Source of the DNA: Vulcanimicrobiota bacterium | GTDB taxonomy: Bacteria; Vulcanimicrobiota; Vulcanimicrobiia; Eremiobacterales; Eremiobacteraceae | Assembly (NCBI GenBank): GCA_963812135.1 | Contig: CAWETU010000005.1 | Span: 64,001 to 128,000 of the forward strand | Direction: 5' to 3' | Length of the DNA: 64,000 nucleotides | In this document: positions 10,660-47,280 of the stretch, piece by piece | Layout of the letters: each line of letters begins with the position of its first letter | How positions within the stretch are numbered: position 1 is the first letter of the stretch | Program-made: the position numbers and the translations under genes | The notes under the pieces: model-generated | What the model was told of the DNA's origin: nothing | The model's database searches: none | What the model saw: only the letters and a program-made list of their open reading frames with translations

Positions 10660-10710
10660 ACGGTCGAATAAATTCGACCGCTACATACGTCGAATACATT
10701 CGACCGCTAC
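10660..10710 (-). repeat. REP-like palindrome, copies 2 and 3 (tandem, 26-bp period)
   Basis: Perfect GTAG-CGGTCGAATTTATTCGACCG at 10661-10684 and a degenerate copy at 10687-10710 whose TAG is the cytochrome b stop codon. Confidence 0.85.
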
Positions 10711-12227: not shown

Positions 12228-12241
12228 GAAATGCGCTCTCC

Positions 12242-27006: not shown

Positions 27007-27710
27007 ACCATGCAGTCTCAGTGCTGCTCGTCGATGACGAGCCGCAGATCGTCGAAATCCTCGACCGTTATCTGTCTGACGAAGGTTTCGTCGTCCACAA
27101 GGCATATGACGGACCCGCTGCCCTACGCATCGCCGCCGCGGAAAAGCCGCAGCTCGTGCTGCTCGACCTCAAGATGCCCGGGATGAGCGGATACGACGTC
27201 TTCAAAGAGATCCGCGCGGATTCGACGGTGCCGATCATCATGCTCACGTCGCGAAGCGAAGAAGTTGACCGTGTCGTCGGGCTCGAGCTGGGCGCAGATG
27301 ACTATATCACCAAGCCGTTCAGCCCGCGCGAGGTGGTGGCGCGCATCAAGGCTGTGCTGCGCCGCACCCAAGCATCGGGGCGCGCGGCATCGACCGAACC
27401 CAGCGCCGCGATCCGCGCAGGCGACATCGAGATCGATCCTGCCGAGCACGAGGTGCGCGTTCGCGGCAGCGCGATCGCGCTGACACCGACCGAGTTTCGC
27501 ATCCTCGAACTGCTCGCGTCGAACCCTGGCCGCACGTTCACACGCACGCAGCTGCTCGATAAGATCAAAGGCGACGAGCTCGAGATCTACGATCGCACGC
27601 TTGACCGGCACGTCGCCAACCTGCGTCACAAGATCGAAGCCGAGCCAGCGAATCCGAAATATGTCCTCACGGTGTTCGGCGTCGGTTACAAGATGGCGAA
27701 GGTATCGTGA
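27003..27710 (+). CDS. OmpR/PhoB-family response regulator
   Basis: LLVDDE, LLDLKMP, GADDYITKPFSPRE, winged helix RTLDRHVANLRHKIE. Confidence 0.93.
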   Translation: MNHAVSVLLVDDEPQIVEILDRYLSDEGFVVHKAYDGPAALRIAAAEKPQLVLLDLKMPGMSGYDVFKEIRADSTVPIIMLTSRSEEVDRVVGLELGADDYITKPFSPREVVARIKAVLRRTQASGRAASTEPSAAIRAGDIEIDPAEHEVRVRGSAIALTPTEFRILELLASNPGRTFTRTQLLDKIKGDELEIYDRTLDRHVANLRHKIEAEPANPKYVLTVFGVGYKMAKVS

Positions 27711-28426
27711 GCGAGCGCGACCGCACCGGGCTCTCCGAGCTGATCCACGAGTTGCGCAATCAGCTGGCGGTGGCCAAAGCCAACCTCGAGGCCTTTATCG
27801 ACGGCAAGTTGCCGCCGACGGCGCAGCGCCTCGAGAATGTCGTGCAAACCCTCAATCAAATGGAAGAGCTCATCAAAGATCTGCGCGTTTTGCAGCCGGC
27901 GGCCGACGCCGATTCGGCAGCCACCGCTGCGACGCTGACCGAAATCAACGTCTGCCAGCTCCTGGAGCGCGAGTTCGCATCGATGGAGGCGGTCGCGCTG
28001 GAGAAAAAAATTTCGCTATCGGTGTTCCGCTGCCCGCACCCGAATGCCGCCTGCCAGCACTTCTATGGCGACCCAGGCCGCATCGGCCAAATCGTGAAAA
28101 ACGTGCTGCTCAATGCGGTGCGTTACACGCCTTCGGGCGGAACGATCAGCGTGGATTGCCGCCGCCGAGCCGATGAGCTGCAAGTGACGATCGAGGATAA
28201 TGGACCGGGCGTGAGCAGCGCAGACGCCGGCCATATCTTCGAACCAGGCTTCCGTGGCACTGCCGGCGGCGAGGCGGGCTCCGGAATCGGACTTGCCGTG
28301 GTCAAAGGTCTTGTCGAGGCCCACGGCGGGTCGATCCGCCTCAATCCAGAGTCGGTTCGGGGCGCCAGCTTCATCTTGCGCTTGCCGGGGCGGCTGCCCG
28401 AGCCAGGAGCGTCCCGAATCCCGTAA
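27707..28426 (+). CDS. Short cytoplasmic histidine kinase without a sensor domain
   Basis: HELRNQL H-box at residue 14, NVLLNAVRYT, EDNGPG, GSGIGL, AHGG. Confidence 0.88.
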   Translation: MSERDRTGLSELIHELRNQLAVAKANLEAFIDGKLPPTAQRLENVVQTLNQMEELIKDLRVLQPAADADSAATAATLTEINVCQLLEREFASMEAVALEKKISLSVFRCPHPNAACQHFYGDPGRIGQIVKNVLLNAVRYTPSGGTISVDCRRRADELQVTIEDNGPGVSSADAGHIFEPGFRGTAGGEAGSGIGLAVVKGLVEAHGGSIRLNPESVRGASFILRLPGRLPEPGASRIP

Positions 28427-28496
28427 CGTCATGTGAAGGGCGCTTCACACCCCTTTCGCTCTAGTGGCAGACGGCTGCGCTACGCTTGGCGGACGT

Positions 28497-30881: not shown

Positions 30882-32121
30882 AGCCAGCGCGTTAACGACC
30901 GCCTATTTGGCCTGCGATGCAGGCTCGAGCAGCTTCAAGGCCGCGTTGTTCGACATCGGCGCGCCGGTGCCGCGCGAAGCGCAAGCGCCGCGCTGGGAAG
31001 GCGCCGTCTCCTGGAAACGGTTGCCTGGCAATGCGGTCGTCACGTCGAGTTGGCACGGTGCGCGCGCCGACGAGCTTCAGGCGTCGTTGCACGTGGCTTC
31101 CGAAGCGCCGGCTCGCTTGCTCCACGGATTGCAGACGAGCGCGGGCGCAGACCAGCCGTTCGCGCAACACGTCGTGCACCGGATCGTCCACGCAGGCCAA
31201 CTCGAGCGCTCGCCCGCACGCGTCACGGCCGCCGTGCGCCGCGCGATCGACTCGGCGACGCCGCTCGCACCCGAGCACAACGCCGTCGCGCTGGCCGGCA
31301 TCGAGGCGGTGGACAACGTCTTGCCAGGCGTGGAGCAATACATCATCAGCGACTCTGCCTATCACGCCGACATGCCGCTCGCCGCGTCGACATACGCGGT
31401 CCCGGCGTCGTGGCAAAAAGTGTGGGGCATCCGCCGCCTCGGGTTCCACGGCGTGAGCCACAGCTATGCGGCGCAGCGCGCCGCGCAGATCGCCGGCCTG
31501 CCGCTGCGCTCTCTGAAGATCGTCACGTGCCACCTCGGCAACGGTTGTTCGCTTGCCGCGACATCGGCGGGAAGCAGCATCGACACGACGATGGGCTGGA
31601 CGCCGATGGAGGGCCTTGCGATGGGTCAGCGTTCGGGCAGCCTCGACCCCGGCATCATGCTCTATCTCATGGAACGTGGCCGCTACACCGCCTCAGAGCT
31701 GCGAAGGGTGCTCAATGAGGAATCGGGCCTCAAGGGGATCTCCGGCCTCTCCGGCGACATGCGCGAACTCCTCGAGGCGGTCGAATCCGGCCACCCGCAC
31801 GCGACGCTGGCGCTCGACGTCTTCGTCCACCGGATCCGCGCAGGCATCGGCGCTATGGCCGCGAGCCTTGGCGGTCTTGATTCGCTCGTGTTCACCGGCG
31901 GCATCGGCGAGGGTTCACATGAGGTGCGCCGCGCGGTGTGCACGGGCCTTGGTTTTTTGGGAATCGAGCTCGATGAGGAACACGACGCCGCAGCGGTGGC
32001 CGATTGCAACGTCGCACAACGATTTTCACGAGTCAGCATTTTTGTCGTGCAGGCCCGCGAGACGTGGGCCATGGCCCGCGACTGCGCGCTCGCCGTCGAA
32101 CATGCGGCAGTGCGCATCTGA
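30862..32121 (+). CDS. ackA: Acetate/propionate kinase
   Basis: DAGSSSFK, HRIVHAG, LAPEHN, GFHGVSH, CHLGNG, DTTMGWTPMEGL, FTGGIGE; start uncertain. Confidence 0.9.
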   Translation: MQRRRREASALTTAYLACDAGSSSFKAALFDIGAPVPREAQAPRWEGAVSWKRLPGNAVVTSSWHGARADELQASLHVASEAPARLLHGLQTSAGADQPFAQHVVHRIVHAGQLERSPARVTAAVRRAIDSATPLAPEHNAVALAGIEAVDNVLPGVEQYIISDSAYHADMPLAASTYAVPASWQKVWGIRRLGFHGVSHSYAAQRAAQIAGLPLRSLKIVTCHLGNGCSLAATSAGSSIDTTMGWTPMEGLAMGQRSGSLDPGIMLYLMERGRYTASELRRVLNEESGLKGISGLSGDMRELLEAVESGHPHATLALDVFVHRIRAGIGAMAASLGGLDSLVFTGGIGEGSHEVRRAVCTGLGFLGIELDEEHDAAAVADCNVAQRFSRVSIFVVQARETWAMARDCALAVEHAAVRI

Positions 32122-32153
32122 TGAGCGCGTTGTGAACGCGTAGGAGGTATATC

Positions 32154-32606
32154 ATGTCAGTCTTTCGTTCGTTGTTCGTCCCCATTGACGGTTCGGAGCC
32201 GTCAGACGCCGCAACCGCGCTGGCGCTCAAGCTTGCGGCCGACCAGAACGCCGCCATGACCTTCGTCAATGTCGTTGAGGTTGACAAGGTGCTCGCCTCG
32301 GTGCTCCCCGGCCAAGGATACTCCGACCCAGCGCCGGCCATCGACGCGATGCGCACCGCCGGCAAGGATATGCTCAAGAACGCGGTCAGCCAAGCACAAA
32401 GCGCAGGCATCAAAGCGCGCTCGGAGCTCATCGAAGGCAATTGCGTGCCGTGCATCATCGAAGCCGCGAAGACGGCCGGCGCCGATCTGATCGTCATCGG
32501 CAGCCACGGACGTGGCGGGTTGACGCGCCTCGTGTTGGGCAGCGTCGCTGAAGGCGTGCTGCGGCACTGCAGCATCCCGGTGCTGATCACGAAAGCGTCG
32601 CCATGA
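32154..32606 (+). CDS. Universal stress protein (UspA family)
   Basis: VPIDGS, DLIVIGSHGRGG...LGSVAEGVLR. Confidence 0.92.
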   Translation: MSVFRSLFVPIDGSEPSDAATALALKLAADQNAAMTFVNVVEVDKVLASVLPGQGYSDPAPAIDAMRTAGKDMLKNAVSQAQSAGIKARSELIEGNCVPCIIEAAKTAGADLIVIGSHGRGGLTRLVLGSVAEGVLRHCSIPVLITKASP

Positions 32607-33646
32607 AGACGTTCGTGATGAAAGAGATCGGCAAAGTCGGATTTGCCGAAAAACCCAAGCCGCAAGCGGGTCCCAACGACGCTATCGTGCGCACCACCGC
32701 GGCCTTGATCTGCACGTCCGATTCGCACACCGTGCGCGGCGCGATCGGGGATCGTCACAACCTCACGCTCGGCCACGAGGCGGTCGGCGTCGTCGACAGC
32801 GTCGGCAGCGAGGTGAAGCTGTTCAAACGCGGCGACCGGGTGCTGGTCGGCGCGATCACACCCGTCTGGGGCGATCTCGCCTCGCAAGCGGGCCATCCTT
32901 CGCAATCCGAACAGCCGCTCGGCGGTTGGCGTTTTGCGAACGTCAAAGACGGCGTGTTCGCCGAGTACTTCCACGTCAACGAAGCGGACGCGAACATGGC
33001 GCTCATCCCGGCGAGCGTGACCGACGAAGCCGCCGCCTATTGCGCCGACATGCTCTCGACGGGATTCATGGGTGCCGAGAACGCGGCGATCCCCATCGGC
33101 GGCACCGTCGCCGTCTTCGCGGAGGGGCCGGTCGGACTCATGGCGACCGCCGGCTCGCGCCTGCTCGGTGCAGGGCTCGTCATCGGCGTCGATGCGGTCC
33201 CCGCGCGCCAGGCGCTGGCGCGCTTTTACGGCGCGGACGAAGTGGTCGATGCCGACGGCGCGGTCGAGCAGATCATGCGCTTGACCGGCGGGCGCGGCGT
33301 TGACTCGAGCATCGAAGCGCTCGGCGCTGAGGTGACGTTTCAGAACTGCATCAGAGTGACCAAAGCGGGCGGAACGATTTCCAACGTCGGCTATCACGGG
33401 AGCGGCGATGTGGTCGGCATCCCCCGGGTCGAGTGGGGCGTCGGCATGGCGGAGAAAACCATCCGCACCGGCCTGTGCCCCGGCGGGCGCTTGCGCATGG
33501 AGCGCTTGCTGCGCATGCTCGAGGCCAAGCGTCTCGATCCGACTCGCATGACGACGCATCGTTTTCCGTTCGCCGACATGGAGCGCGCGTTCGAGGTCAT
33601 GGACAAGAAGCTCGACGGCGTCATCAAACCGCTTATCACGTTTTGA
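32603..33646 (+). CDS. Zn-dependent NAD(P) alcohol dehydrogenase (secondary ADH-like)
   Basis: CTSD, GHE, DMLSTGF, GPVGL, GLCPGGRLRMERL; lacks the structural-Zn Cys cluster. Confidence 0.88.
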   Translation: MKTFVMKEIGKVGFAEKPKPQAGPNDAIVRTTAALICTSDSHTVRGAIGDRHNLTLGHEAVGVVDSVGSEVKLFKRGDRVLVGAITPVWGDLASQAGHPSQSEQPLGGWRFANVKDGVFAEYFHVNEADANMALIPASVTDEAAAYCADMLSTGFMGAENAAIPIGGTVAVFAEGPVGLMATAGSRLLGAGLVIGVDAVPARQALARFYGADEVVDADGAVEQIMRLTGGRGVDSSIEALGAEVTFQNCIRVTKAGGTISNVGYHGSGDVVGIPRVEWGVGMAEKTIRTGLCPGGRLRMERLLRMLEAKRLDPTRMTTHRFPFADMERAFEVMDKKLDGVIKPLITF

Positions 33647-33664
33647 AGGCGTGAAGGCCAGCGC

Positions 33665-35521
33665 GTGAAGACCGGGCTCCCGCGCTTCCCGCTTGAGATC
33701 TACATCGCCGCGTTCGCAACGGCGGGCATCCTCGCTAGCCTCGCAATGCAATACGCGCTCGCGCTGCCTCGTTCGCTCACCGTCCTTCCGCTCTACGCCG
33801 TCCTCGTGCTGGGCGGTCTGCCGCTGCTGTTCAAGCTCGGGCGCAAGCTCATCGCGCGCGACTTCGGCTCGGATCTGCTGGCCGGTGTCTCGATCGCGAC
33901 GGCCGTGCTGTTGGGCGAATACCTCGTGGCCTGCATCGTCGTGCTCATGCTGTCCGGCGGTGAAGCGCTCGAGCTCTTCGCCGCGCGGCGCGCGTCGTCG
34001 ATCCTCGCTGCGCTTTCGCGCCGCATGCCCGATATCGCGCACCGCAGCGCCGCCACCGGCCTCGTCGATATCACGCTTGATGACATCCGCATCGGCGACA
34101 GGTTAGTCGTTCTGCCGCACGAGCTGTGCCCGGTCGACGGCGCGGTGCAACAAGGCCACGGCTGGATGGATGAATCCTATCTGACCGGCGAGCCGTATCG
34201 CACGTCGAAGGCACCGGGGTCGCACGTGCTCTCCGGCGCGATCAACGGCGACTCGGCGATGACGATCGAGGCGACGCAGCTGCCCGTCGACTCGCGCTAT
34301 GCCCGGATCATGCGCGTGATGCGCGAAGCCGAAGCGAAACGTCCGCACCTTCGCCGCCTCGGCGACCAACTCGGCGCGTGGTACACGCCGCTCGCGCTTG
34401 CGATCGGCGCAGCCGGCTGGCTGCTGACGGGGAGCGCGAGCCGGTTTCTCGCGGTCGTCGTCATCGCCACACCGTGCCCGCTGCTGCTGGCGATCCCGGT
34501 CGCGATCATCGGCGCGGTCTCGCTCGCCGCCCGCCACGCCATCGTCGTGAGGGACCCGGCTATGCTCGAGCGCATCGGCTCGTGCCGCGCGATCGTCTTG
34601 GACAAGACGGGCACGCTCACGTACGGCAAACCGTCTTTGACCGACGTCATCTGCGCGCCCGGCTTCACGCGCGAGCAGATCCTCGCGCTGGCCGGCAGCC
34701 TCGAGCGCTATTCGAAGCATCCGCTCGCCGGCGCGGTCGTCCGCGCAGCCGACGAGCAGCGCGTGCCGCTTGCTGAGGTCGCGCAGTTGAACGAGACGCC
34801 GGGCACGGGCTTACGAGGCGTCGTCGGCACGGAGACCGTGGAAATCGTCGGCCGCAACTCGGTGGAGCGTGACCGTCCTGACCTGCATGCTGCGCTGCCG
34901 GAACAGAGCGGCGGTTTGGAATCCCTGGTGCTCGTGGATGGCGCGTTCGCTGCAGCGCTGCGCTTTCGCGACGAGCCGCGCGAGGAAGGCGGTTCGTTCA
35001 TCCGTCATCTTCTGCCGCGCCACCAGGTCGATCGCGTCATGATCCTATCGGGCGACCGCGAAACGGAGGTGCGCTATCTTGCGAGCCGGGTCGGCATCAG
35101 CGAGGTCCACTACGGGAAGACGCCTGAGGAGAAGGTCCAGATCGTCGCAGAGCTGAGCCGGCTCGGGCCCACGCTGTTCATCGGGGACGGCATCAACGAC
35201 GCGCCGGCGATGCAAAGCGCGACCGTCGGTCTGGCGTTTGGACAGAACAGCGACATCACCGCGGAGGCCGCCGACGCCGTGATCATGGAGCCATCGCTCG
35301 GCAAGATCGACGAGATCATGCACATCGGCCGGCGCATGCGCGTGATCGCGCTGCAAAGCGCGGTCGGCGGCATGGCGCTGAGCTGCATCGGCATGGGACT
35401 CGCCCTTGCGGGCTACTTGCCGCCCATCGCGGGCGCCGTCGCGCAGGAGGTCATCGACGTCCTCGCAGTGCTCAACGCGCTGCGCGTGGGGTTCCCGTGG
35501 CGCGCTTTGACGGATTTCTAG
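33665..35521 (+). CDS. Heavy-metal P-type ATPase, P1B-5-like
   Basis: TGE, TPCP, DKTGTLT, HP, GDGINDAP, QSAVGGMALSCIGM (Qx4Gx3Sx3M), QEVID. Confidence 0.88.
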   Translation: MKTGLPRFPLEIYIAAFATAGILASLAMQYALALPRSLTVLPLYAVLVLGGLPLLFKLGRKLIARDFGSDLLAGVSIATAVLLGEYLVACIVVLMLSGGEALELFAARRASSILAALSRRMPDIAHRSAATGLVDITLDDIRIGDRLVVLPHELCPVDGAVQQGHGWMDESYLTGEPYRTSKAPGSHVLSGAINGDSAMTIEATQLPVDSRYARIMRVMREAEAKRPHLRRLGDQLGAWYTPLALAIGAAGWLLTGSASRFLAVVVIATPCPLLLAIPVAIIGAVSLAARHAIVVRDPAMLERIGSCRAIVLDKTGTLTYGKPSLTDVICAPGFTREQILALAGSLERYSKHPLAGAVVRAADEQRVPLAEVAQLNETPGTGLRGVVGTETVEIVGRNSVERDRPDLHAALPEQSGGLESLVLVDGAFAAALRFRDEPREEGGSFIRHLLPRHQVDRVMILSGDRETEVRYLASRVGISEVHYGKTPEEKVQIVAELSRLGPTLFIGDGINDAPAMQSATVGLAFGQNSDITAEAADAVIMEPSLGKIDEIMHIGRRMRVIALQSAVGGMALSCIGMGLALAGYLPPIAGAVAQEVIDVLAVLNALRVGFPWRALTDF

Positions 35522-35528
35522 CAACCGA

Positions 35529-38264
35529 TCAGAGCTCGAGGACAGCGTCCACCATCGAAGCGTCAGGTTCGAAGGCGCTCGTGAAGCCGAGCTCCTTGCA
35601 CACGCGCAGCATCGCGCTGTTGTCGGACAAGATATGGCCGACGATGCGACCAACTCCCTCGGCGCGCCCGATATCGATGAGCCGGCGCAGCAGCTCTCGG
35701 CCGAGCCCGTGGTGCTGAAACTTGTCGGTCACCACGAGCGCAAACTCCGCCTCGTCCCCTTCGTGCGATTTGATCAGCCTGCCCACCGCAACGATCGACG
35801 GTTGGTCCCCTGCCTGGGGCAGCGCGACCAGCGCCATCTCACGATCGTAGTCGATGAAACACGAGCGGATGAGACGGCTGTGCGCGACTCGCGCGTCGAG
35901 ACGCACGACGTGGGCATAGCGACGGTAGACACTGCTCTCCGAGAGGGTCTCGTGGAATCGCCGCAGCAGCGCTTCGTCGTCGGGCCGGATCGGACGGATG
36001 AAGAACTCGGTGCCGTCCTGCGCGGTCCAACGGCCTTCAAATTGCCGTGGATATGGCCGGATCGCCAGCTTCGGCAGCGCGCTTTCGAGCACGGCCGCGT
36101 CATGGAGCACGACGCGCGCGTCGAGCGCGATCACGCCGGCCGCTGAGGCGAGCAACGGATTGATATCGAGCTCCTTGACACGCCGCTGCTCGCTGACGAG
36201 CCTGCTCACGTTCACGAGCGTGCGCTCGAGCGCCGCGATGTCCACCGGGTCGTGGCCGCGCGTGCCGCTCAGCGCGCGGAAGATCTTCGTGCGCTCCATG
36301 AGCTGTCTGGCAAGGGTCGACGTCAGCGGCGGCAGGCCGAGCGCGCGGTCCTTGAAGACCTCGACCAATGTGCCGCCGAGGCCGAATAAGAGCACGGGAC
36401 CGAACTGGACGTCGACGCTCGAACCGACGATCAGCTCGTATCCCTCGCGCCGGATCATCGGCTGGACGGTCACGCCCTCGAAGGCGTTCGGTCCGCCCGC
36501 GTCGCGCGCCGCGCGTTCGATGGCGGTGTACGCCGCTGCAGCTGCCGCTTCGTCGACAATGTCGAGGGCAACGCCGCCGACGTCGCTCTTGTGCGATATT
36601 ACGTGCGAGTGCAGTTTGATGGCAACGGGGAAACCCATCGAGCGCGCAGTGGCCGATGTCTCGAGCGCCGACGTGGCGAGCGTCGTGGGCACCGTTGGAA
36701 TGCTGTAGGCGGCGAATAGCGATTTCGCCTCGATCTCCGCCAACAGCGTCCGCCCCTGATCCGTTGCTGCCGCGATGATCTCTCGCGCGCGCCGGCGATC
36801 GATGCCCTTCTCTTCCTGCTCGACGGGCGTCTCGTAGAGGCTGCGCAGCGTGTCGTCGTAGCGCCACATGTAGTTGAACATGCGGCTCGCGGTGTCAGGG
36901 TACGGCACGGTTGGGATGCCGGCTTTGCGCAAGCGCTCGTCGCCGCTCGACGAACTGCGGCCGCCCAGCCAGCTCGCGAGCACCGGCTTTGCGGGCACGT
37001 GCGCGTACGGTGCGAGCGCGCGCGCGATGTCGTCCGACTCGGAGACGCCCTGGGGCGCGAAAATGACGAGCACGCCCTCGACGCCGTCGTCGGCGCTGAT
37101 CGTTTCCATGGCGGTCGCGTAGCGGCGCGCGTCGGCGTCGCCGAGGATGTCGACCGGATCGTTGCGGCTCCATGCGGGCGGCAGGAACGATGAGAGATGC
37201 TGCATGGTCGCGGAACCAAGCTGCGCGACAACACCACCGCCCTCGACGAGCGCGTCGGCGGCCAGCACGGCAGGTCCGCCGGCGTTCGTCAGGATCGCGA
37301 GCCGTTTGCCGCGCGGCCGCGGCTGGCGCTCGAGCACTTCGGCCATGAGGAACAGATCTTCGATGGCGTCGACGCGCAGCACGCCGCAGCGCGAGAACGC
37401 CGCATCGAGCACCGCGTCGCTGCCGGTCAACGCGCCCGTATGCGATGCCGCGGCCGCCGCGCCCGCGTCGCTGCGTCCGGCTTTGATGACGATGATCGGC
37501 TTGACCAACGCGACCTCGCGCGCCGCCGACATGAACGAGCGCGCATCGCCGACCGATTCCATGTACGCGATGATGCTCTTCGTCTGCGGATCGTCGCCGA
37601 GATAATAAAGGATGTCCGCCCAGCCGACGTCGAGCATCGAACCGACCGACACGAACCGGCTGAAGCCGAAGTCTTGGTCGAGACTCCAGTCCAGGATCGC
37701 GCTGCCCAAAGCGCCGCTCTGGCTGGCGAACCCCAAGCTGCCTGGCCGGGCCGGCGCCCGCGAGAACGTCGCATTGAAACCCTTGCCGGGCGACATCACG
37801 CCGAAGCAGTTTGGACCGATGACGCGGATGCCGCTCGCGCGCACCGTCTTCTCTATGCGCTGTTCGAGCTCAACGCCGGCCGGGCCGATCTCGCGGAACC
37901 CTGCCGAGATGATGATCGCGCCGCGCACGCCCGCCGCGACGCACTCTTCCACGACCGACGGAACGCTGGGCGCGGGCGTGATGATGATCGCGACGTCGAC
38001 ATGCGCACGGATCGCGCCGACGCTCGGATAGGAAGGCCTGCCAAGCACCGTCCGCTGCGCCGGGTTTACCGCGAAGACATCGCCGGAAAACGTGCCGTCG
38101 GTGAGATTTTCGAACACGCGCCGTCCCACGCGGCCGGCGCGCTCGGTCGCGCCGATCACGGCGACCGATTTCGGCTCGAACAGCGTCTCGAGCGGTTGTG
38201 CACGCACGCGTGTGACATCATGCACGGGTTCGGCGAGCGACGGCTGCACGGGATCAGGCGGCAT
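35529..38264 (-). CDS. Acetate-CoA ligase-like / GNAT fusion (Pat-type protein lysine acetyltransferase)
   Basis: CoA-binding domain, [32 protein letters not shown]-terminal GNAT ([17 protein letters not shown]). Confidence 0.88.
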
Positions 38265-40887
38265 GAGCGCTCCGCCGATGGTGCCACATGTAGCGCGATG
38301 TCACGCGATGTAGCCGGCGATGCGGGTGATGCAGCACGGGTACGGGCGCAGGAGCGCTTCCCAAGGCGTGGCGATAGAACACGCTCTTGCCGGCCTCGAC
38401 AAGCGCGAAGTACGCCGTGACGATGAGCAGCATCAACACCGAGAAGAGGGCGAGCGGGAGCTGCGTGAAGCCGAACACCGATGCGAACGGGGTGAATGGC
38501 AGGGCGGCACCGGCGATGCCGACGATCAGAGTCGTGGCGGCCAGCGGCACGCTTGGCCGGCTGCGCCAGAAGGGCACGCGCCGCGTGCGGATCGCGAAGA
38601 TCACCAGCGTTTGGGTCAGGAAATTCTCCACGAAGAAACCTGAACGGAACAGCGTCGGCCCCGAATGGAAGACCCACAGCATCATGCCGAAGATCGCGAA
38701 ATCGAAGAGCGAGTTGATCGGGCCGAAGAACAGCATGAAGCGCCGGATCAGACGCATGTCCCAGCGCGCCGGGCGTTGCAACAGCTCAGGATCGACGTTG
38801 TCGGTAGGAATCGTCATCTCGCTCACGTCGTAGAGCAGATTGTTGAGGAGGATCTGCGATGGCAGCATGGGCAGGAACGGCACGATCAATGAAGCGACCG
38901 ACGTGCTCACCATGTTGCCGAAATTCGATGACGTGCCCATCAGCACGTACTTGATCGTGTTGGCGAAGATGCGCCGGCCCTCGACGACGCCGTCAGCGAG
39001 GATCCCAAGGTCTTTGGTGAGCAGCACGATATCCGCCGCATCTTTGGCGACGTCAGCACCCGTGTCGACCGAGATGCCGACATCGGCGTCGTGGAGCGCG
39101 ACCGCGTCGTTGACGCCGTCGCCGAGGAAACCGACATCGACGCCGAGCGAGCGTTGCGCCCGGATGATGCGCGATTTCTGCTCCGGCGCGATGCGCGCGA
39201 AGACGGTCGTGTGCGGCAAGGCGTCGATCAGCTGCTCATCGCTCATCGCGTCGAGCTGCGCGCCGGTCAGGGTCCCTTCCACTGCGAGCCCGAGCGCCGC
39301 GCACACTTTTTGGGCCACGCGCTCGTTGTCGCCGGTCACGATCTTGACCTCGATGTTCAGGTCGCGTAAGCGGCGCAGCGCCTGTGCCGCGTCTGTCTTC
39401 GGGGGATCAGTGAATACGAGCAGTCCCGCGGGCGTCAAATCGCACTCGTCTTGCGGTCGCAGCTCGTGCATACCGGACGCATCGCGCGTCGCGACCGCGA
39501 TGACGCGAGCGCCTGCCGCGAACTGCGCGTCGAGCGCCGCGGACAAGGCGGCGGGGACCTGCGTGCAGCACGCGAGCACCGATTCAGGCGCGCCTTTGAC
39601 GACGATCGTCCGCTTGCCTGAAGCGTCTTCCACCAACACCGTCATGCGGCGCCGGGCGTAGTCGAACGGCAACTGCGCGACCTGACTGATCTTCTCGTCC
39701 TTGAAGCGCGCGCGGTCCGGCGCGTCGAGCAACGCGCGATCGAGCGGGTTGCCGCCGAGCGCGCCCTGTGCGCTAGCGACGGCCGAATTGCAGAGCAGAC
39801 CGTACCGCAAGACATCGGGCGATGGCTTCCCCGACGCGTCGAGCCCCGCCGAGAATTCGATGCGCCCCTCGGTGAGCGTCCCGGTCTTGTCGGTGAACAG
39901 GACCTCGATGTTGCCGAAGTCCTCAATGCTGACGAGGCGCTTGACGACGACGGATTTGCGCGCCATGCGTTGCGCGCCGGTGGAGAGGCTGATCGTGACG
40001 ATCGCGGGCAGCAACTGCGGCGTCAGACCGACGGCGATCGCCAATGCGAACAGCAACGACTCGAACAGCGGATGGTGGAGCAACGCATTGAGGACGAAGA
40101 TAGAGACGGTCAACACCACCGTGACCTGCACGAGCAACGCCGAGAAGTCGTGCAGTCCGCGTTCGAACGATGTCACCGGCGGCCGCCCGCCAAGCGTGCG
40201 GGCGATCGAGCCGAGCACGGTGGACGGGCCTGTTCGCACGACGACGCCGCGCCCCGTGCCCGCGCGCACGAGCGTGCCCATGAACGCACAGGATGGCAGG
40301 TCGAGTCCTTGAGGAGGTGCTGCGAGTGCGCCGGCGGACTTGTCGGCCGGCAGCGATTCTCCCGTCAACACCGCCTCGTCGCACTCGAGCTCGCTCGCCT
40401 GCAGGAGCCGCAGGTCGGCGGGCACCATCGCGCCGGTGTCGAGCTCGACGACATCTCCCGGCACGAGCGTTTCGACCGGGCGCGCCGTCGCGCTGCCGTC
40501 ACGGATCACTACTGCTTCATGGCTCACGCGCGAATGGAGATCTTCGATGGCCCGCTCGGACCGGTATTCGTTGAACGCGCCAAGTCCGACCGACAGCGCT
40601 ACGATGGCGAGGATGATGGCGGCATCCGTCTGCTCGCCGAACACGATCGAGAGTGCTGCCGCGAATGCGAGCAGCAAGAGCAACGGATTGCGGAACTGGC
40701 GCGCGAGCGTCACTAGCAGATTCGCGCCGCGCACGCGCAGCGAATTGGGACCGACCAAAGCGAGGCGCCGGCTTGCCTCTACGGCGCTCAGACCTTCGGG
40801 CGCCGTCTCGAGCTGCGCGACGGCCGCAGCCGGCGGCATTTGCGCGGCCTGCGCGAGCGTAAGATCTTTCCAGGGTGCCGCCTTCAT
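38254..40887 (-). CDS. mgtA: Magnesium-translocating P-type ATPase
   Basis: [43 protein letters not shown]. Confidence 0.9.
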
Positions 40888-41014: not shown

Positions 41015-42202
41015 CTATCTTGACAGGCCCTTCATGTTGCCCAGTGTGGTGTTCCAGAGCAACTGGGCGCGCCAGCCTGGAGCCGTCGATCCGGAGACCA
41101 TGTTCACCTCGCCGTTGAGCATCAACGCGTTGGCGTTATTCGATGCGACGTGGCGCGAGAGCATGACGCCGAGATCGACGTAACCATAGTGGAACATCGT
41201 GCCGAGCCCATCGTTGGTCATCTCGTAGCGGCCGCCCAGCATGACTTTGCTGTCGAGGAACGGTTGGAAGACGTCAATCGTATAGCCGGAGCTGGAGGCC
41301 GGGCCGAATCCAGGGCCTGCGTTCGCGTCGTGGTTGCTCGAGTACATCGCGAACAATCCTGGCAAGCCGTGCTGCGGATCCATCTCCACGTATGGTGTGA
41401 TCGAGTTGTATTGGTCGAACGTCCCGTCCGATAGCGGCCACGAGCCGCTCGCGCCGTACACGCCGGCCTCGAATGGCTTGTCGGGCCGTGCGTACGCCGC
41501 GCGGTATTGGAACGTCTTGTCCGTCGGCGTCGTGAAGTCGAACGCGCTGTTCAAGTCGCCGCCGGGACCGGTGTATGCGCCTTCCACGACGTACCCCGGC
41601 CGGACATAGCCTAGTTTCACGCCCCAGCGGTTGGCGTCGAGCTGATACGCGTGTTCGCCGACGGTGATCTCCGGCGGCGCGAACGGTGAAAGCTCGAACC
41701 ACATGCTGAACGGCGAAGGCGCGGGGACTTCGAGCTTACCGACGGTGAGGTGCGCATCGCGGTGCAACAGGTTGTTGTAGGTGAGCCAAAGCGTGTCCGT
41801 GCCGCCGGGTTCATTGCCCTGCACGATCCACTGCTGCGCGTGCACCGTTATGTCGCTGCCGAGATATCCGGCCGCCTGTATGTTGATGTTCCCGAGCTGG
41901 ATCTTGCCGGGGTACGTGGAGTCTTGGGTGTCCTGGAAGGCCGCCATCTGGACCCACAGCGGATTGACGCCGTGCATGACGGTTGAGTCGAGCGACGCGT
42001 AACCCGTCCGCTGGACGTAGCGGCCGTACGCGTTGAGCGCCGGGATGTTCGCGTGGCATACTTCGCAATTGATGCCGTAGGCCTGCGCGAAGGGCGGCAT
42101 GGCTTGCGTTGGCCGCATGCTCTCGAGCACGACGGCGATGGCCACCACGGCGCCGACGATGAGGACCGTCGCGCGGACGGTCCCCCTGACGTGGGCCTTC
42201 AC
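41015..42202 (-). CDS. Cyc2-like monoheme cytochrome c / beta-barrel fusion protein
   Basis: Signal peptide, then PPFAQAYGINCEVCHANIPALNAYGRYVQRTGY, followed by ~320 aa rich in aromatic/Gly residues with an alternating beta-strand pattern. Confidence 0.72.
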   Translation of the reverse strand: MKAHVRGTVRATVLIVGAVVAIAVVLESMRPTQAMPPFAQAYGINCEVCHANIPALNAYGRYVQRTGYASLDSTVMHGVNPLWVQMAAFQDTQDSTYPGKIQLGNINIQAAGYLGSDITVHAQQWIVQGNEPGGTDTLWLTYNNLLHRDAHLTVGKLEVPAPSPFSMWFELSPFAPPEITVGEHAYQLDANRWGVKLGYVRPGYVVEGAYTGPGGDLNSAFDFTTPTDKTFQYRAAYARPDKPFEAGVYGASGSWPLSDGTFDQYNSITPYVEMDPQHGLPGLFAMYSSNHDANAGPGFGPASSSGYTIDVFQPFLDSKVMLGGRYEMTNDGLGTMFHYGYVDLGVMLSRHVASNNANALMLNGEVNMVSGSTAPGWRAQLLWNTTLGNMKGLSR

Positions 42203-42555
42203 GGTTTCACTTCAACGGTGAGCACCATGTCCCCGTGACCGCTGCCGCATGGGATGCTGCAGTGGATCTTGTATGTGCCGGCTTTCTTCGGCGTCACGCT
42301 AACGTCGACGAACTTGCCGGGCATGATCGTCGTTTGCGCGATTCCCAAATCATCTGACTGCAGACCATGGACGCCTTCGGACGACGTGATGTGCAAGACG
42401 GTGGTCTCGCCCACGTGCATCTCGATCGTGCCAGGTGTGAATTTCCAATTCGCTGCCACCACGTCGACCGTCGGATGGGCCATGACGGGTGCCGCGATGA
42501 ATAGGACGACAACGCCGGCCAGAACTGCCAAGCGTTGTGATGCTGTCATTAACAT
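42199..42555 (-). CDS. Secreted cupredoxin with a CuA-type ligand set
   Basis: Signal peptide, WKFTP, VHG...CSIPCGSGHGDM (H...Cx3Cx3Hx2M); stop overlaps the Cyc2-like start (GTGA). Confidence 0.85.
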   Translation of the reverse strand: MLMTASQRLAVLAGVVVLFIAAPVMAHPTVDVVAANWKFTPGTIEMHVGETTVLHITSSEGVHGLQSDDLGIAQTTIMPGKFVDVSVTPKKAGTYKIHCSIPCGSGHGDMVLTVEVKP

Positions 42556-42703
42556 AGTACCTACCTCCCACGCCTATTGTGCCAGAACCCGCGCCCGGCC
42601 CGATGAGGAGGATGTGAAGCCGAGGCGAAGGCATGTGAAGGCTGCTACAAAGACCGCATTGAAGCCCGCCGCCCACGCGCTTTTGGAGACCAAAACTCGG
42701 CGA

Positions 42704-43192
42704 ATGAGCACATTGTCGGTCCGCCATTTCACACGTTGTCCGTATAGCCGGGCCCGGGGCGCCCTGGAGCAAGCGCTTGCCGCCCTGGCTGACAACCGGC
42801 AAACCCAGACGTTGACGCTCTCGGTGCCGCTGGGCAAGGACGAAGCGGCAGGGGCGCTGCGAAAGGACGTCATCGTGTCCTACGCGCGCAGCGCCGATCC
42901 GCAGCACTTTGACCAGCCCTGGACGATCCATTGGACGCCGACGCCGGGCGGGGTGTACCCCGACTTCAACGGCGAGCTGACCGTGCGTGCGGCGGACACG
43001 CACAGCAATTGCTTCCTCGAATTGGAGGGCGAGTACACGCCCCCGCTGGGCGCGATAGGAGCGGCGTTCGACGCAGCGCTCGGCAATCGCATCGCGACCG
43101 CCACCGGCGCGCAGCTGCTCGCGACGATCGGCGAGGCGATGGAGCAGCAGTATCAACGCGAAGAGGCCGCTAAGCCGGGCGAACCGCGTTAG
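42704..43192 (+). CDS. Conserved hypothetical protein, possible SRPBCC/START-like fold
   Basis: GGAG RBS; WTP...YPDFNGEL...LEGEYTPPLGAIGAAFD...RIATAT helix pattern. Confidence 0.6.
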   Translation: MSTLSVRHFTRCPYSRARGALEQALAALADNRQTQTLTLSVPLGKDEAAGALRKDVIVSYARSADPQHFDQPWTIHWTPTPGGVYPDFNGELTVRAADTHSNCFLELEGEYTPPLGAIGAAFDAALGNRIATATGAQLLATIGEAMEQQYQREEAAKPGEPR

Positions 43193-44821
43193 TCACCACG
43201 TCCGCATCCCGGGCGCGCCATACGGATGCATCGAGATCAATTCGGTGAAGGGTCCGACGTAGGCGAGCACCGCGAGCACGACAGCCGCCAGCCCCCAGAG
43301 TCCGATGCGATCGAAGATAGCTGGTGTCGGCAGCGCCTCGTCTTGCGCTTGTGCAAAAGCCACGGGCTGATCATTTCGCTCGCGTGAGAACCGCGTGCCG
43401 ATCGCGACCGCCGCGAACATCAAAATGCTGATGAACAGGATCGTGCCGCCCACCGCCGCCGCGATCATCTCGGGCATCCACGCATGCGCGGCCGCAGTGC
43501 CGAAGTACGACACGTCATCGGTGCGGCGCGGCGAGCCCAGCAGACCGGCCCAGTGCATCGCCGTCGACATCACCAACATGCCGATGAACCAGGCCCATGT
43601 CTGCGCGAGGGCGAGTTTAGGCGCCCATAATTTGCGCCCGGTGAGCGCCGGCACGAGCCAGTACGCCGCGCCCACGAACGAGAGCGCCACCGGGCCGCCG
43701 ACCGTGACATGGAAGTGTCCGACGATCCACATCGTGTTATGGACGAGCGTGTCGATGCTGTACGACGCGTTCACCACGCCACCGGCACCGCCCAAGATGA
43801 AGAGCAGCATGCCGAGCGCCGGGCCCGAAAACGCTGGGTTGCCCCACGGCAACGAGGTGATGACGCCCCAGAAGCCGGGCCGCCCCTTTGCGCGCGCCGC
43901 CATCTCGAACGACGCGAAGATGGCGAACGCCGTCAGAATCGACGGGATGACGACGCCGTAGGTCGTCATCGTGTGGACCCACTTCCACCCCGCCGAGATG
44001 CCCGGCTCCATGAACTCGTGATGCAGTCCGACGGGCGTCGAGAGGATCAGCAGCAGTAGGAACGCGAGCCGCGTCAGTGCGTCGCTGAACACCTTGCCGC
44101 CGTAGAAGACCGGCACAATGTTGTACCAGATCAGGTACGCGCCCATGATCCAGAAGTAGACCAGCGGATGCCCGAAATACCAGAACAACATGCGCGTCAT
44201 CATGACGTCGACCGTCGGCACCCAGCCGAGCGACCACGGGATGAGGAAGACGAGCATCTCGATCGCCACGCCGATCGTGGCGATGAACCACATGACAAAC
44301 GTGCACGCCGTGCCGTGCACGACCAGAGGCAGCCGCTCGCCCGGATGAGTTTTGCGGAAATAGACGATGTTCTCGAGGATCTCGGCCAGCACGAACCAGG
44401 TGGCGACGACGAGCAGCGTCGCGCCGATGTAGAACGCCGGATGCGCTTTGAGCGGCGCGTAAAACGTGTAAAGCACTGATGCGTTGCCGCTGAGGATCGC
44501 CCACGTCGCCATCAGCGTGCCGACGAGCATCAGGAGGTAGCCCGACCAACCGAGGCGCAGCGCGCGCTCGCGCGGCACCGCGCGATACACCAAGAACAGC
44601 GACAACCCGCAGATGAAGAACGTCGTGAAGACGAGCGCCATCAACACGCCATGCGCGGTCAGCATGCGATAGTAGTCGAACCAGTGAGGCGCGACGAACG
44701 CCTTTGCGCGCGAGAACGCCTGCAGCAGCCCGAACAGCGCTCCGACGACGAGCGCTCCCGTGGCCGTGTACACGTAGGCCAGCGGCAGTCGGTTCTCGCG
44801 CTCGATCTGCGTCAACGCCAC
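43193..44821 (-). CDS. cbaA: ba3-type (family B) heme-copper oxidase subunit I
   Basis: LTAHGV, LYTFYAPL, FWYFGHPLVYFW, PVGLHH, VHNTMWIVGHFH, PRR. Confidence 0.92.
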   Translation of the reverse strand: MALTQIERENRLPLAYVYTATGALVVGALFGLLQAFSRAKAFVAPHWFDYYRMLTAHGVLMALVFTTFFICGLSLFLVYRAVPRERALRLGWSGYLLMLVGTLMATWAILSGNASVLYTFYAPLKAHPAFYIGATLLVVATWFVLAEILENIVYFRKTHPGERLPLVVHGTACTFVMWFIATIGVAIEMLVFLIPWSLGWVPTVDVMMTRMLFWYFGHPLVYFWIMGAYLIWYNIVPVFYGGKVFSDALTRLAFLLLLILSTPVGLHHEFMEPGISAGWKWVHTMTTYGVVIPSILTAFAIFASFEMAARAKGRPGFWGVITSLPWGNPAFSGPALGMLLFILGGAGGVVNASYSIDTLVHNTMWIVGHFHVTVGGPVALSFVGAAYWLVPALTGRKLWAPKLALAQTWAWFIGMLVMSTAMHWAGLLGSPRRTDDVSYFGTAAAHAWMPEMIAAAVGGTILFISILMFAAVAIGTRFSRERNDQPVAFAQAQDEALPTPAIFDRIGLWGLAAVVLAVLAYVGPFTELISMHPYGAPGMRTW

Positions 44822-44822
44822 G

Positions 44823-45290
44823 TCAGCGCACCTCGACGGTGCCGTACATATAGTGATGGCCCGCGCCGCAGTATTCGTTGCAGAGCAGCAGATATTGGCC
44901 GCGTTGACGGAACACGTGCGACGCGCTGCTCACCCAGCCGGGCACGACCAGCATGTTGACGTCGGTATTGGTGATGAAAAAGCCATGGACGACGTCCGGC
45001 GCCGTAGTGTAGAACGTGACCTTGGCGCCAAGCGGCACGTCGAGATGGCTTGGCGTGAACGAGAAGATCCTGGCGATGATGTACGCCTCGTATTCGCCGT
45101 CACGGATCTTGCGCAGCCCGGGCTTGTCGAACGGCGGTGTTTGCGCGACTCTGGCGGGATCGATCGTCTGGCGACGGCTCGGCGGGACGATGCCTTCGCT
45201 GATGGCGGCGGTCCCGATGATCCCCAAGAACACGATCAGCGCCGCGACGCCGAATCCGATCCAGATGCGTTCAACGCGATGGACGTGCAC
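44823..45290 (-). CDS. cbaB: ba3-type oxidase subunit II (CuA)
   Basis: One TM helix, DVVHGF, CNEYCGAGHHYM. Confidence 0.92.
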   Translation of the reverse strand: MHVHRVERIWIGFGVAALIVFLGIIGTAAISEGIVPPSRRQTIDPARVAQTPPFDKPGLRKIRDGEYEAYIIARIFSFTPSHLDVPLGAKVTFYTTAPDVVHGFFITNTDVNMLVVPGWVSSASHVFRQRGQYLLLCNEYCGAGHHYMYGTVEVR

Positions 45291-45291
45291 G

Positions 45292-45411
45292 TCACCACCT
45301 GCTCGCCATGAGGGCGAACATCAACACCCACACGACGACCAGAAAAATGCCAAGACCCGTCACGAACAGGGCGGTCGCCGGCAACGGCCCGTCTTGGCGA
45401 TTGTCGCTCAT
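45292..45411 (-). CDS. cbaD: ba3-type oxidase subunit IIa (39 aa, below the ORF track cutoff)
   Basis: Manual translation MSDNRQDGPLPATALFVTGLGIFLVVVWVLMFALMASRW; single TM helix directly upstream of subunit II. Confidence 0.75.
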   Translation of the reverse strand: MSDNRQDGPLPATALFVTGLGIFLVVVWVLMFALMASRW

Positions 45412-45464
45412 GCGGGACCATTCTAGCCCGGGCGCGATTATTCTACTATGAAGAAGTTGGGAAT

Positions 45465-47280
45465 TTAGCCGCGGACCGCGTCGCCGGCGGCCTCGCGCAG
45501 GCGCGCACCTTCAACCGCGACGCTCGCCAGCTGCGCGAACACTTCGATGGTCCGCACGGTCGAGTCGTCGGGCACGAGATGGTCGCGCGGCTCGTCAGGC
45601 GACAGCACGCCGATGAGCGTGCCCTGCGAGTCAAAAAACGGGAAGATGAGCAAATCGTCTTCGTGCCATTCACCGGGACCGCCGCGCGGCAAGCGCGACA
45701 GCTGCGGGTTACGCACGACGCCGCCTGGCATGTGCAGTTCCATCGGCGTGTAGTAGTATGTGTCTCGCACGCGCGCGTTCGGCGACATCGATGCGAGTAG
45801 TTCCGCGTCGGATATCTCTTGGCCGACGACCGTGTCCGGGTAGCCCAACGCGGCACGGCGCACGAACACGTTGCGCATCGGGTCGCGGACGACGATGGTA
45901 CCCGCGGCGAAGTTGAACTGGCTGAGCGCAACCTCGAGGATGCGCTTGAGGACGCGGTCCAGATCGCGCTCCTTGAAGATGGATGCGGTCAGGTCGAGGA
46001 TGCTGGATAGCCGCACGGCCTGCATGCGCCGCCCTTCGGCCGCTTGCTCCGCCTCTCGATACAGCCGTTGGATCTCGCGGTTGGTTTCGGTCAGCTCTTC
46101 GGCGCGCCGCTGCTCGGTCGTGAAGAGGTGGACGTTCTCGATGGCGGCCGCGGCGAGGTGGGCGAAGAGCGCGACGTTGTCGATCGTCCCCGCCGAAGGC
46201 ACGAAGTTGTCGGCGGGCGCGTCGGGCACGAGCAGGCCGATCACATCGCCCGACGACGAATGCAGCTGGAACATCAACGTGTCCGCTTCGTTCCACTCCT
46301 CCGGCCGGCTGCGCGCTTCGCCGAGCCGGTCGCGATCGTAGACCAACGCCGGATCGGTGTACCACGATTGCTTCTCAGCCGGCGCGTAGAAGACCCATGG
46401 GCGGATAGCAAAGCGCTTGTCCAATTTGAGATCGATCTGCGCAAACGCCACTTCGCGGTGGCGCAACATGAGCTCGACGTGCGCCGGATAGCCGCGCACC
46501 GCACTGTAGCGATAGGCGGCGCGATCGCGGTCGGCGACGAGAATCGATCCCGCGCGGAACCCGAACGCGTTGATGGTCGCTTCGAGGATCCGGTCGAGCA
46601 GCGTCGCTAATTCGCGCTCGCGCATGAGCGTCACGCTGAGCTCGACGACCTTGCGCAGCGTACTCGCTTGCGCCTTGGTCTCAGCAAGCATCGATTCTTC
46701 GATGGCGGCCGCCCGCGAGAGCTCCTCGCCGCGCCTCACCAGCGCTTGGCTGCGTTCGTCGATCTCTCGGACGAGCAGGCCGACGTTGAGCACGTTGAGC
46801 CACAGCACAGCGATCTGGAAGAACATGTTGACGGCGAGCGAGGTGTCAGCCGAGGGGTTCGTGATGTGCGCGATCACGATCACCACGGTGCCGGCCGCTC
46901 CGGAGATGAGCGCGCCCGCGTAGCGTTCGCGCGAGGCGGCGATCGCGGTGAACACCACCAATCCGACCCAGGTCGTCGGGAAAGCTTCTCTGATACGCCA
47001 GCACGAAGGCCGAAAGCGCGATGAAATCCACTACCAGCAGCGCGCGCGCCGTCCAGCGGATGACGGTCTCGCTCTGGGTCCGCCCGTTGATGTAGTACGC
47101 GACGAGCGTGCCGACCAGCCAGAACGCGATCGCGGCCGGTTTGACCCATGACGGGGCGGACTCGGGTAACGAGAACGCGATCGCGGTGCCGATGAACACC
47201 GTGATGAGGCGCACCCGCAAAATGCTGGCTTCAGCGGCGCGAGAGGCTTCGAGCGACGATTGGACGGGCGTGTTCTCCAT
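45465..47280 (-). CDS. Membrane protein with tandem GAF domains and no output domain; apparent +1 frameshift near 46978-46980
   Basis: N-terminal TM helices (start MENTPVQ) continue in the next frame into two similar GAF-like repeats (ERELATLLDRIL / ERDLDRVLKRIL; W-E-D-L-F...GLLVPD / GVLSPD). Confidence 0.65.

Follow-up and report, generated by a model that had tools for sequence, protein, structure and literature searches.

The 64-kb window analysed here (64,000 nucleotides of contig CAWETU010000005.1, Vulcanimicrobiota bacterium assembly GCA_963812135.1; all coordinates are positions within it) encodes a putative single-haem cytochrome-porin beside a secreted CuA cupredoxin and a ba3-type oxygen reductase, and raises the question of whether electrons are exchanged across the outer membrane of this bacterium and, if so, in which direction. 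A first-pass annotation, made from the sequence alone, had proposed an uptake chain in which Fe(II) or another external donor feeds the oxidase through the haem and a periplasmic CuA shuttle. The partnership between the barrel and the CuA protein is well supported; the donor and the direction of flow are unproven. The combined observations suggest that Eremiobacteria exchange electrons with their environment under oxygen shortage.

Counts out of 80 loci come from a locus survey of the best 80 of 224 matches, a sample therefore biased to close kin.

Gene layout of the locus

Re-called open reading frames place the cytochrome-porin, the cupredoxin and cbaA, cbaB and cbaD where they had originally been reported. 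Transcription on the minus strand runs in the order cbaD, cbaB, cbaA, a 637-bp gap, cupredoxin and cytochrome-porin:

41015 to 42202, minus strand: cytochrome-porin, Cyc2-like and monohaem, 395 amino acids (open reading frame, haem motif, fold model, profile homology)
42199 to 42555, minus strand: secreted stand-alone CuA cupredoxin (full CuA ligand set, domain searches)
42704 to 43192, plus strand: intervening 162-amino-acid gene of an Eremiobacteria-specific family, with a weak SRPBCC-like lead (open reading frame, locus survey, Atlas)
43193 to 44821, minus strand: cbaA, B-family haem-copper oxygen reductase subunit I (ligands, alignment to solved structures)
44823 to 45290, minus strand: cbaB, membrane-anchored CuA subunit II (domain search, solved relatives)
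45292 to 45411, minus strand: cbaD-like single-helix subunit IIa, 39 amino acids (open reading frame; 20 homologous small open reading frames called in loci)

The genes for the cytochrome-porin and the cupredoxin overlap by 4 nt, in agreement with the translational coupling first proposed for them. The cba genes had been placed about 640 bp upstream on the same strand, which is correct, but the gap holds an opposite-strand gene that had been missed, the 162-amino-acid reading frame, convergent with the cbaA stop and divergent from the cupredoxin. This is a real gene family, with homologs in 31/80 loci and Atlas clusters at 0.98–0.99 that are dominated by the host phylum, and its presence in the gap means that the five genes form at least two transcription units here and not one operon. 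The intervening family (~160 amino acids) is large and Eremiobacteria-specific, often occurs in several copies per low-oxygen island and corresponds to no Pfam family.

A divergent Cyc2-like cytochrome-porin

The cytochrome-porin gene starts with GTG and encodes a hydrophobic leader (residues 1–34, ending TQA; the signal peptides of this protein and its relatives were judged by eye) followed by MPPFAQAYGINCEVCH. Its sole CxxCH (C46, C49 and H50) has the N-terminal position and Cyc2-like spacing described for it at the outset, including FAQ in place of FAR, and a single CxxCH is also found in 120 of 120 listed homologs. The published Cyc2 signature consists of AXPXFAR[Q/K][T/Y] before the CxxCH and PxL after it (10.1101/228056). 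The corresponding stretch here is AMPPFAQAY, which has the spacing of Cyc2 and keeps five of the seven specified positions, R and Q/K being replaced. The PxL lies four residues past the CxxCH, with P and L invariant in all 116 scored relatives, as is the whole set of haem-motif residues C, C, H, P, L, N, G and R. At 395 amino acids the protein also lies within the length expected of Cyc2 (at least 365).

AlphaFold2, given a 128-row alignment and the mature 361 residues, predicts a short helical haem domain followed by a 16-strand barrel with a mean pLDDT of 95 and a pTM of 0.91, and so bears out the probable beta-barrel of the first-pass annotation. The closest of 48,161 solved chains is OprP (2o4v; Z 22.2, rmsd 3.2, 283 residues aligned), ahead of other 16-strand porins, and published work on Cyc2 itself likewise names OprP and OprO as templates (10.1101/228056). 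The protein has no family match in Pfam or NCBIfam and no match in a sequence search of the PDB. In an hhalign comparison the profile of its family could be matched over 339 columns to one built from 74 distant proteins, with a probability of 99.8 and E 3.8e-28; these are unnamed FARKY-type proteins whose consensus carries the strict motif, and no characterised Cyc2 is among them. By profile comparison, then, the homology of the cytochrome-porin to proteins with the Cyc2 motif extends along its full length. A quick IQ-TREE tree (71 rows, first 365 residues of each core) sets the family apart as a separate clade (SH-aLRT 100). Since the family fails the strict motif, its sequence is best filed as Cyc2-like, a divergent branch rather than a strict member of Cyc2.

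The lack of a terminal Phe, noted as a caveat at the start, is confirmed. In the fold model the last barrel strand ends about ten residues short of the C-terminus, and because a tail follows this strand, which relatives extend and fuse to further domains, the missing Phe was dropped as an argument against Cyc2 kinship. At the other end, Met35, the predicted mature N-terminus, lies 11 residues before the first Cys and is kept in 115/116 relatives. The same register recurs in a weak match to the reaction-centre tetrahaem cytochromes (E 0.016), in which haem is ligated by Met, and Met35 could be the sixth haem ligand, though this is a lead only. A cytochrome f-like N-terminal haem ligation found no support in a PDB search. 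The mature protein would be loaded with haem and located in the outer membrane.

The CuA cupredoxin as probable partner of the barrel

The cupredoxin has every CuA ligand (H63, C99, C103, H107 and M110, in the pattern His, Cys-x3-Cys-x3-His-x2-Met on a cupredoxin fold). Among solved structures the best matches are CuA domains of ba3 oxidases (E 1e-9 to 1e-11), and matches below cut-off were obtained to CoxB and NosZ in NCBIfam. A cupredoxin gene lies directly upstream of the barrel gene in 77/80 loci, and the ligand set is complete in 75 of these 77, the exceptions being L008 (frameshift) and L044 (ligands lost). The synteny survey thus upholds a conserved linkage between barrel and cupredoxin, the absence of which had been named at first as grounds for rejection.

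Of the three loci without an upstream cupredoxin, L039 carries it as a fusion with the barrel, L022 instead has a trihaem cytochrome c and an iron-sulfur protein of high potential (HiPIP), and L033 has neither. Barrel-CuA fusions occur in P0123, P0275 and P0276, and in DNA at L047:8001-9542 and L039:5514-7064; all fall in one clade, which implies one fusion event. C-terminal cytochrome c domains are present on nine other barrel relatives in several separate branches, trihaem cytochromes c flank the pair in 9/80 loci and HiPIPs in 2/80 (L022:3198-3536, L069:10393-10677). The barrel therefore keeps a periplasmic one-electron carrier nearby, whether fused or flanking, and one carrier can stand in for another; this is the strongest functional evidence in the dataset. 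Together with the fusions, which make the partnership stronger than could have been known from the window alone, it makes it very probable that barrel and cupredoxin are redox partners. The cupredoxin would be loaded with copper and would touch the barrel directly. Complex prediction for barrel, cupredoxin and haem gave scores of 0.01 and 0.25 (mark 0.32) with the cupredoxin entered without an alignment, and the natural fusion P0275, likewise folded without an alignment, reached a pLDDT of 33.

A different role for the cupredoxin would be to supply copper, as chaperone or buffer, when the CuA and CuB sites of the oxidase are assembled, the barrel then being a porin with a structural or regulatory haem. 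The predicted mature cupredoxin begins with His (42475-42477), kept in 58/77 neighbours and a possible extra copper site, and its weak matches include other copper-binding cupredoxins (4hcf), both of which would suit such a role. The near-universal retention of the full CuA ligand set does not, nor does the fact that the cupredoxin travels with the barrel (77/80) and not with the oxidase (25/80), or that it trades places with cytochromes c and HiPIP, which carry electrons rather than copper. We regard a copper chaperone as very improbable.

Further variants of the unit were observed. Tandem duplications of the cupredoxin-barrel unit are found in L047, L070 and L072, and proteins with two CuA domains exist (P0271-P0273). 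The host genome holds a second CuA cupredoxin of the same family (G000:C1:1307361-1308131, 52% identity), fused behind an N-terminal domain and with no barrel gene beside it.

The ba3 oxidase and its looser link to the pair

CbaA aligns end to end with subunit I of the Thermus ba3 oxidase (E 1.6e-124, compared to E 6e-14 for the best A-family chain), and it keeps the ligands H57, H218, H267, H268, H369 and H371 as well as the cross-link Y222 (HPxVY). The best solved relative of CbaB is likewise a Thermus ba3 subunit (E 1.4e-36). As a member of this family the oxidase would contain haems b and a3 and have a high affinity for O2.

A B-family cbaA is found in 25/80 loci, and cbaDBA lies directly upstream on the same strand in 11/72 loci with 3.5 kb of upstream DNA. 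Among 231 genomes of the class, cbaA is present in 121, and the barrel family (E<1e-50) occurs in 106 of these (88%) as opposed to 57 of the 110 without cbaA (52%), a co-occurrence whose significance is overstated because kin are not independent. For 86 genomes both coordinates were available (those of the barrel from the best 150 of 596 barrel matches): the two genes are at most 3.5 kb apart in 21, at most 10 kb in 14 more and at most 35 kb in another 8, further apart in 14 and on different contigs in 29, which puts cbaA within 10 kb of the barrel gene in 35/86. In the family of the host the distance is no more than 3.5 kb in 13/13 genomes with both coordinates listed, and the spacing leaves no room for the intervening gene in 5/5 genomes of its genus. 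The B-family identity of the oxidase and a conserved linkage thus stand, but the linkage is looser than was stated and extends over two transcription units.

In five loci a different haem-copper enzyme replaces ba3 beside the pair. Its subunit I (L056:15245-16195, L060:2266-3720, L061:2007-3434, L065:4719-6098 and L066:4-975) has Asn in place of the cross-link Tyr, and alongside it are encoded a membrane cytochrome c and a CuA-bearing subunit II. NO reduction has been proposed or shown for B-derived families that lack the tyrosine and have CuA subunits (PMC11214002), and the enzyme is likely an sNOR/bNOR-like NO reductase.

The looseness of the link also suits a model in which pair and oxidase are co-regulated and yet serve separate chains, the barrel and CuA forming a small-flux redox module for redox sensing, reductive acquisition of iron or copper, or detoxification, and ba3 being fed by the cytochrome c domain attached to cytochrome b or by other c-type cytochromes. 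The two units have their own promoters and an opposite-strand gene between them, spacing and orientation to cba vary across loci, the host QcrB (see below) bears a cytochrome c domain of its own, the distribution of the family in the class is near-core, VIT1 transporters occur in 2/80 loci (L047:6872-7576, L064:1869-2522) and a P1B ATPase lies in the island. Conversely, the barrel is enriched in cbaA-positive genomes, the position of ba3 can be taken by another haem-copper enzyme and dedicated electron carriers are repeatedly fused to the barrel, which point to respiration, and no TonB receptor or siderophore family is among the families common to at least four loci. Separate chains are, on balance, distinctly unlikely.

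Regulation and the proposed low-oxygen island

A two-copy TTCAC pattern occurs upstream of the cupredoxin in 22/77 loci, compared to 1.2% of random windows, the seed having been chosen after viewing 12 of the 77 regions. A TTC-N8-TTC matrix with an 11-bp period, as is expected of OmpR-family sites, was refined on the cupredoxin upstream regions and then applied to independent ones. It scores above threshold upstream of cbaD in 10/19 loci (2.6% of shuffles) and upstream of the intervening family in 12/16, the universal stress protein gene usp in 6/20 and phosphoketolase in 1/9 (shuffles 0-3%). In the window the highest score belongs to a site 55 bp upstream of cbaD, equalled by another that falls within a coding region; the cbaD site is among 6 positions scoring at least 19 out of 5,587,728 in the genome. 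A genome-wide regulon scan, in which short genes are missed, gave few convincing further sites. The regulatory features and the remainder of the island are:

42613 to 42639, minus strand: tandem TTC repeats with an 11-bp period, ~60 bp upstream of the cupredoxin start, a candidate OmpR-type site
45447 to 45466, minus strand: TTC-N8-TTC site 55 bp upstream of cbaD (motif matrix scan)
27021 to 28426, plus strand: response regulator of the OmpR family (27021-27710) with a small histidine kinase, bounding the island on its far side (domain search; a candidate for the regulator role)
28441 to 40887, no strand assigned: rest of the low-oxygen island (domain searches; motif site at 28441)

A shared regulon of the pair and ba3 is probable. 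Both the cupredoxin-barrel and the cba units would belong to a low-oxygen regulon, for which the OmpR-family regulator and kinase at 27021-28426 may be the regulator. The island encodes a phosphoketolase, an acetate kinase, a universal stress protein, a Zn-alcohol dehydrogenase, two P-type ATPases (a P1B ATPase and MgtA) and an ADP-forming acyl-CoA ligase-GNAT protein; genes for Hsp20, PEP synthase and PNPOx-like proteins join these in related loci. A sigma-70 promoter scan returned 0 sites, and the terminator count was no different from shuffles (4 vs 3.8). Short, near-identical contig pieces from a soil RNA run fall in the barrel, cupredoxin, cbaD/B and mgtA genes; contigs cannot show transcription and these were not counted.

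Two genes near motif sites deserve mention. A membrane-anchored double-GAF protein with no obvious output domain (45465-46961) lies directly upstream of cbaD and is syntenic in L001-L004. A sulfide:quinone reductase-like gene elsewhere in the genome (G000:C6:306-1733, L081, also on C2; NF049943, E 1e-15, below cut-off) is preceded by the motif site that scores highest genome-wide (20.5) and may belong to the same regulon.

Host genome and distribution

Named homologs belong to Candidatus Eremiobacterota (Vulcanimicrobiota). In the host genome, which measures 2.79 Mb and is 98.4% complete, genes for BamA and for a cytochrome c assembly protein are present, and the cultured member of the class has a Gram-negative envelope (PMC9758169); the host is thus a diderm and not the monoderm that would have undone the proposal. 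Two haem-copper oxidases were detected, the B-family enzyme and another whose subunit II bears a cytochrome c domain, and no bd oxidase was found in the genome. A Rieske protein and a cytochrome b with a C-terminal cytochrome c fusion (QcrB) are encoded at 10707-12931, 28 kb from the locus, and make up a menaquinol:cytochrome c reductase.

Among 231 other genomes of the class the barrel family has a match at E 1e-5 in 222 and at E<1e-50 in 163 (~70%), compared to 7/69 genomes of other classes, where all matches are weak. These tallies include six unpublished genomes (G128, G232, G237, G245, G247 and G263), on which no single claim rests. Most class genomes hold 2-5 barrel paralogs. In the host, one paralog of the cytochrome-porin-cytochrome c fusion type (G000:C1:1340208-1341460, L083) is broken: frameshifted after the leader, it has lost the haem motif and most of the barrel, its two C-terminal cytochrome c domains are intact, and a multicopper-oxidase-like gene comes next. 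The locus L001, 83% identical and syntenic with that of the host, is labelled Candidatus Binatus sp., probably a label or binning error.

Direction of electron flow

Low oxygen would lead the OmpR-type regulator to induce the barrel, the CuA protein and the high-affinity ba3 together. A dissolved external reductant, for which Fe(II) is the leading candidate and reduced humic quinones are possible, would enter the pore and reduce the haem plug at the periplasmic mouth of the barrel, and from the haem the electron would move first to the soluble CuA and next to the CuA centre of CbaB, reaching O2 in CbaA, so that a heterotroph gains extra proton-motive force. Induction by low oxygen, the direction and the donor are all parts of a model here. 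We give inward flow to ba3 under low oxygen an even chance, and Fe(II) as its donor is a tentative choice with the balance tipped against it. The barrel, the diderm host, the linkage and the CuA partnership have thus stood, whereas the Fe(II) donor and the direction are still inferred.

Several observations weigh against the inward chain. On the side of the protein, the strict Cyc2 motif is present in 0/120 listed relatives, and the function of distant Cyc2 homologs is uncertain (10.1101/228056). The link to the oxidase is incomplete: the cupredoxin-barrel and cba genes are not one operon in the window, cbaA is absent from 55/80 loci (27/45 among those with full flanks) and more than 35 kb from the barrel in 14/57 same-contig cases, and over half of the cbaA-negative class genomes (57/110) still carry the barrel family. 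The usp gene (32/80) and the intervening family (31/80) neighbour the barrel as commonly as cbaA does (25/80), and the barrel-ba3 link may therefore reflect a shared regulon; moreover, ba3 as the only high-affinity oxidase detected in the genome would be expected in a low-oxygen island anyway. As for the host, neither a RuBisCO nor a NiFe hydrogenase large subunit was found in the 98.4%-complete genome, and presence in ~70% of a mostly-soil class is unlike the pattern of a specialist iron-oxidiser gene. Finally, energetics may disfavour iron oxidation in acid. Typical CuA potentials are about +0.25 to +0.29 V, and the Fe(OH)3/Fe2+ couple changes by 177 mV per pH unit. A rough estimate anchored at 0 mV and pH 7 puts this couple at ~+265 mV at pH 5.5 and ~+530 mV at pH 4, above a typical CuA below ~pH 5.5.

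These points in part favour an outward or reversible conduit, in which, under hypoxia, menaquinol would supply the Rieske/cytochrome b-c complex, CuA and the porin in turn, with Fe(III) or humics as acceptor and ba3 as a merely co-induced low-oxygen sink. The pair sits among genes of fermentation and stress response, those for phosphoketolase, acetate kinase, alcohol dehydrogenase and universal stress protein, with the Hsp20, PEP synthase and PNPOx-like genes of related loci in keeping, the Rieske and cytochrome b-c fusion at 10707-12931 could supply electrons, no RuBisCO was found in the host genome, the family persists where cbaA is lacking (57/110), and ferric hydroxide would be a better acceptor than typical CuA below ~pH 5.5 on the rough estimate above. 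Precedents that count towards this conduit are the proposal that rusticyanin and Cyc2 form the final route of ferric reduction when A. ferrooxidans grows anaerobically, and the micro-aerobic Fe(III) reduction by acidophilic heterotrophs (both PMC8790237). In the literature covered, however, the biochemically tested Cyc2 proteins were all assayed as Fe(II) oxidases; repeated tight placement behind two kinds of terminal haem-copper enzyme, and high-potential carriers (HiPIP) beside the barrel, fit flow towards an oxidase, and a single buried haem reaches dissolved acceptors only. Outward flow is on these grounds unlikely, if a serious contender. Potentials measured for Cyc2 proteins span -130 to about +700 mV (PMC13692758), a width that prevents sequence from settling the direction.

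Considered at the scale of the class, the inward chain may be one setting of a swappable low-oxygen module that has gone unrecognised in most Eremiobacteria, with a Cyc2-like porin and a free CuA shuttle combined with ba3 for O2 or its tyrosine-less relative for NO, which would make these bacteria hidden iron or humic redox cyclers of acidic soils. This reading falls somewhat short of an even chance; if true, the conduit may be run inwards or outwards with pH and oxygen. The direction of flow would tell whether it is oxidation or reduction of iron that these soil heterotrophs carry out where oxic and anoxic zones meet.

Comparison with known systems

Cyc2-like genes in Eremiobacterota genomes are in print, read as possible Fe(II) oxidation (PMC8357290; PMC13594681). 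In the parts available, those reports describe neither the gene context nor a CuA partner, a link to an oxidase or a survey across the class, and they may concern distant paralogs. Chains of Cyc2, copper protein and oxidase are known from the rus operon (PMC10654088; PMC13741234). A Cyc2 accompanied by a CuA protein or by an oxidase of the B family was not found in the literature searched, which excludes most subscription papers, nor in the available parts of PMC12016527, 10.1101/2022.05.06.490989 and 10.1101/2020.03.01.968255; within that scope, the combination of CuA shuttle and family-B oxidase appears undescribed, as the first-pass annotation had supposed. Because the Cyc2 reference set was built with a motif that this family does not satisfy, the family may be undercounted. 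CuA is mainly familiar as the fixed site at which electrons enter oxidases and N2O reductase, and a free CuA protein as dedicated partner of an outer-membrane cytochrome would, if true, represent a novel type of shuttle. For neutrophilic Cyc2 proteins the soluble partners are still unidentified (PMC13692758), and the natural barrel-CuA fusions offer one-gene test constructs.

The cytochrome-porin resembles Cyc2 (A. ferrooxidans Cyc2, M. ferrooxydans Cyc2PV-1, G. bivora Cyc2TAG1_1 and Leptospirillum Cyt572) in its signal peptide, single N-terminal CxxCH, spacing of upstream motif and PxL, 16-strand OprP-like barrel and whole-length profile homology to motif-bearing proteins. It differs in its AMPPFAQAY motif, its own clade, the conserved Met at the predicted mature N-terminus and a barrel that ends in a periplasmic tail accepting fused carriers.

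With the Acidithiobacillus rus operon (cyc2-cyc1-cup-coxBACD-rus; PMC10654088) the locus shares a Cyc2-like gene, a periplasmic copper protein and a haem-copper oxidase. The copper protein here has a binuclear CuA ligand set, whereas the sites of rusticyanin and AcoP are mononuclear; the locus has no dihaem Cyc1, rusticyanin or aa3-type coxBACD, its oxidase being of the B-family ba3 type, and it consists of two transcription units in a low-oxygen island of a host without detected RuBisCO.

The oxidase itself matches that of Thermus thermophilus (CbaA, CbaB and CbaD) in its three-gene layout, His-Tyr active site, His ligands and CuA subunit II. The Thermus enzyme is fed by cytochrome c552, whereas no soluble cytochrome c gene is present in this locus. 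The CuA domains of oxidase subunit II and NosZ, lastly, are alike in ligand set and fold, but in this family the domain is free, a secreted unit of 92 residues (27-118 of the window's cupredoxin) without membrane anchor or catalytic partner, and occurs also as tandem double domains and as fusions to the barrel.

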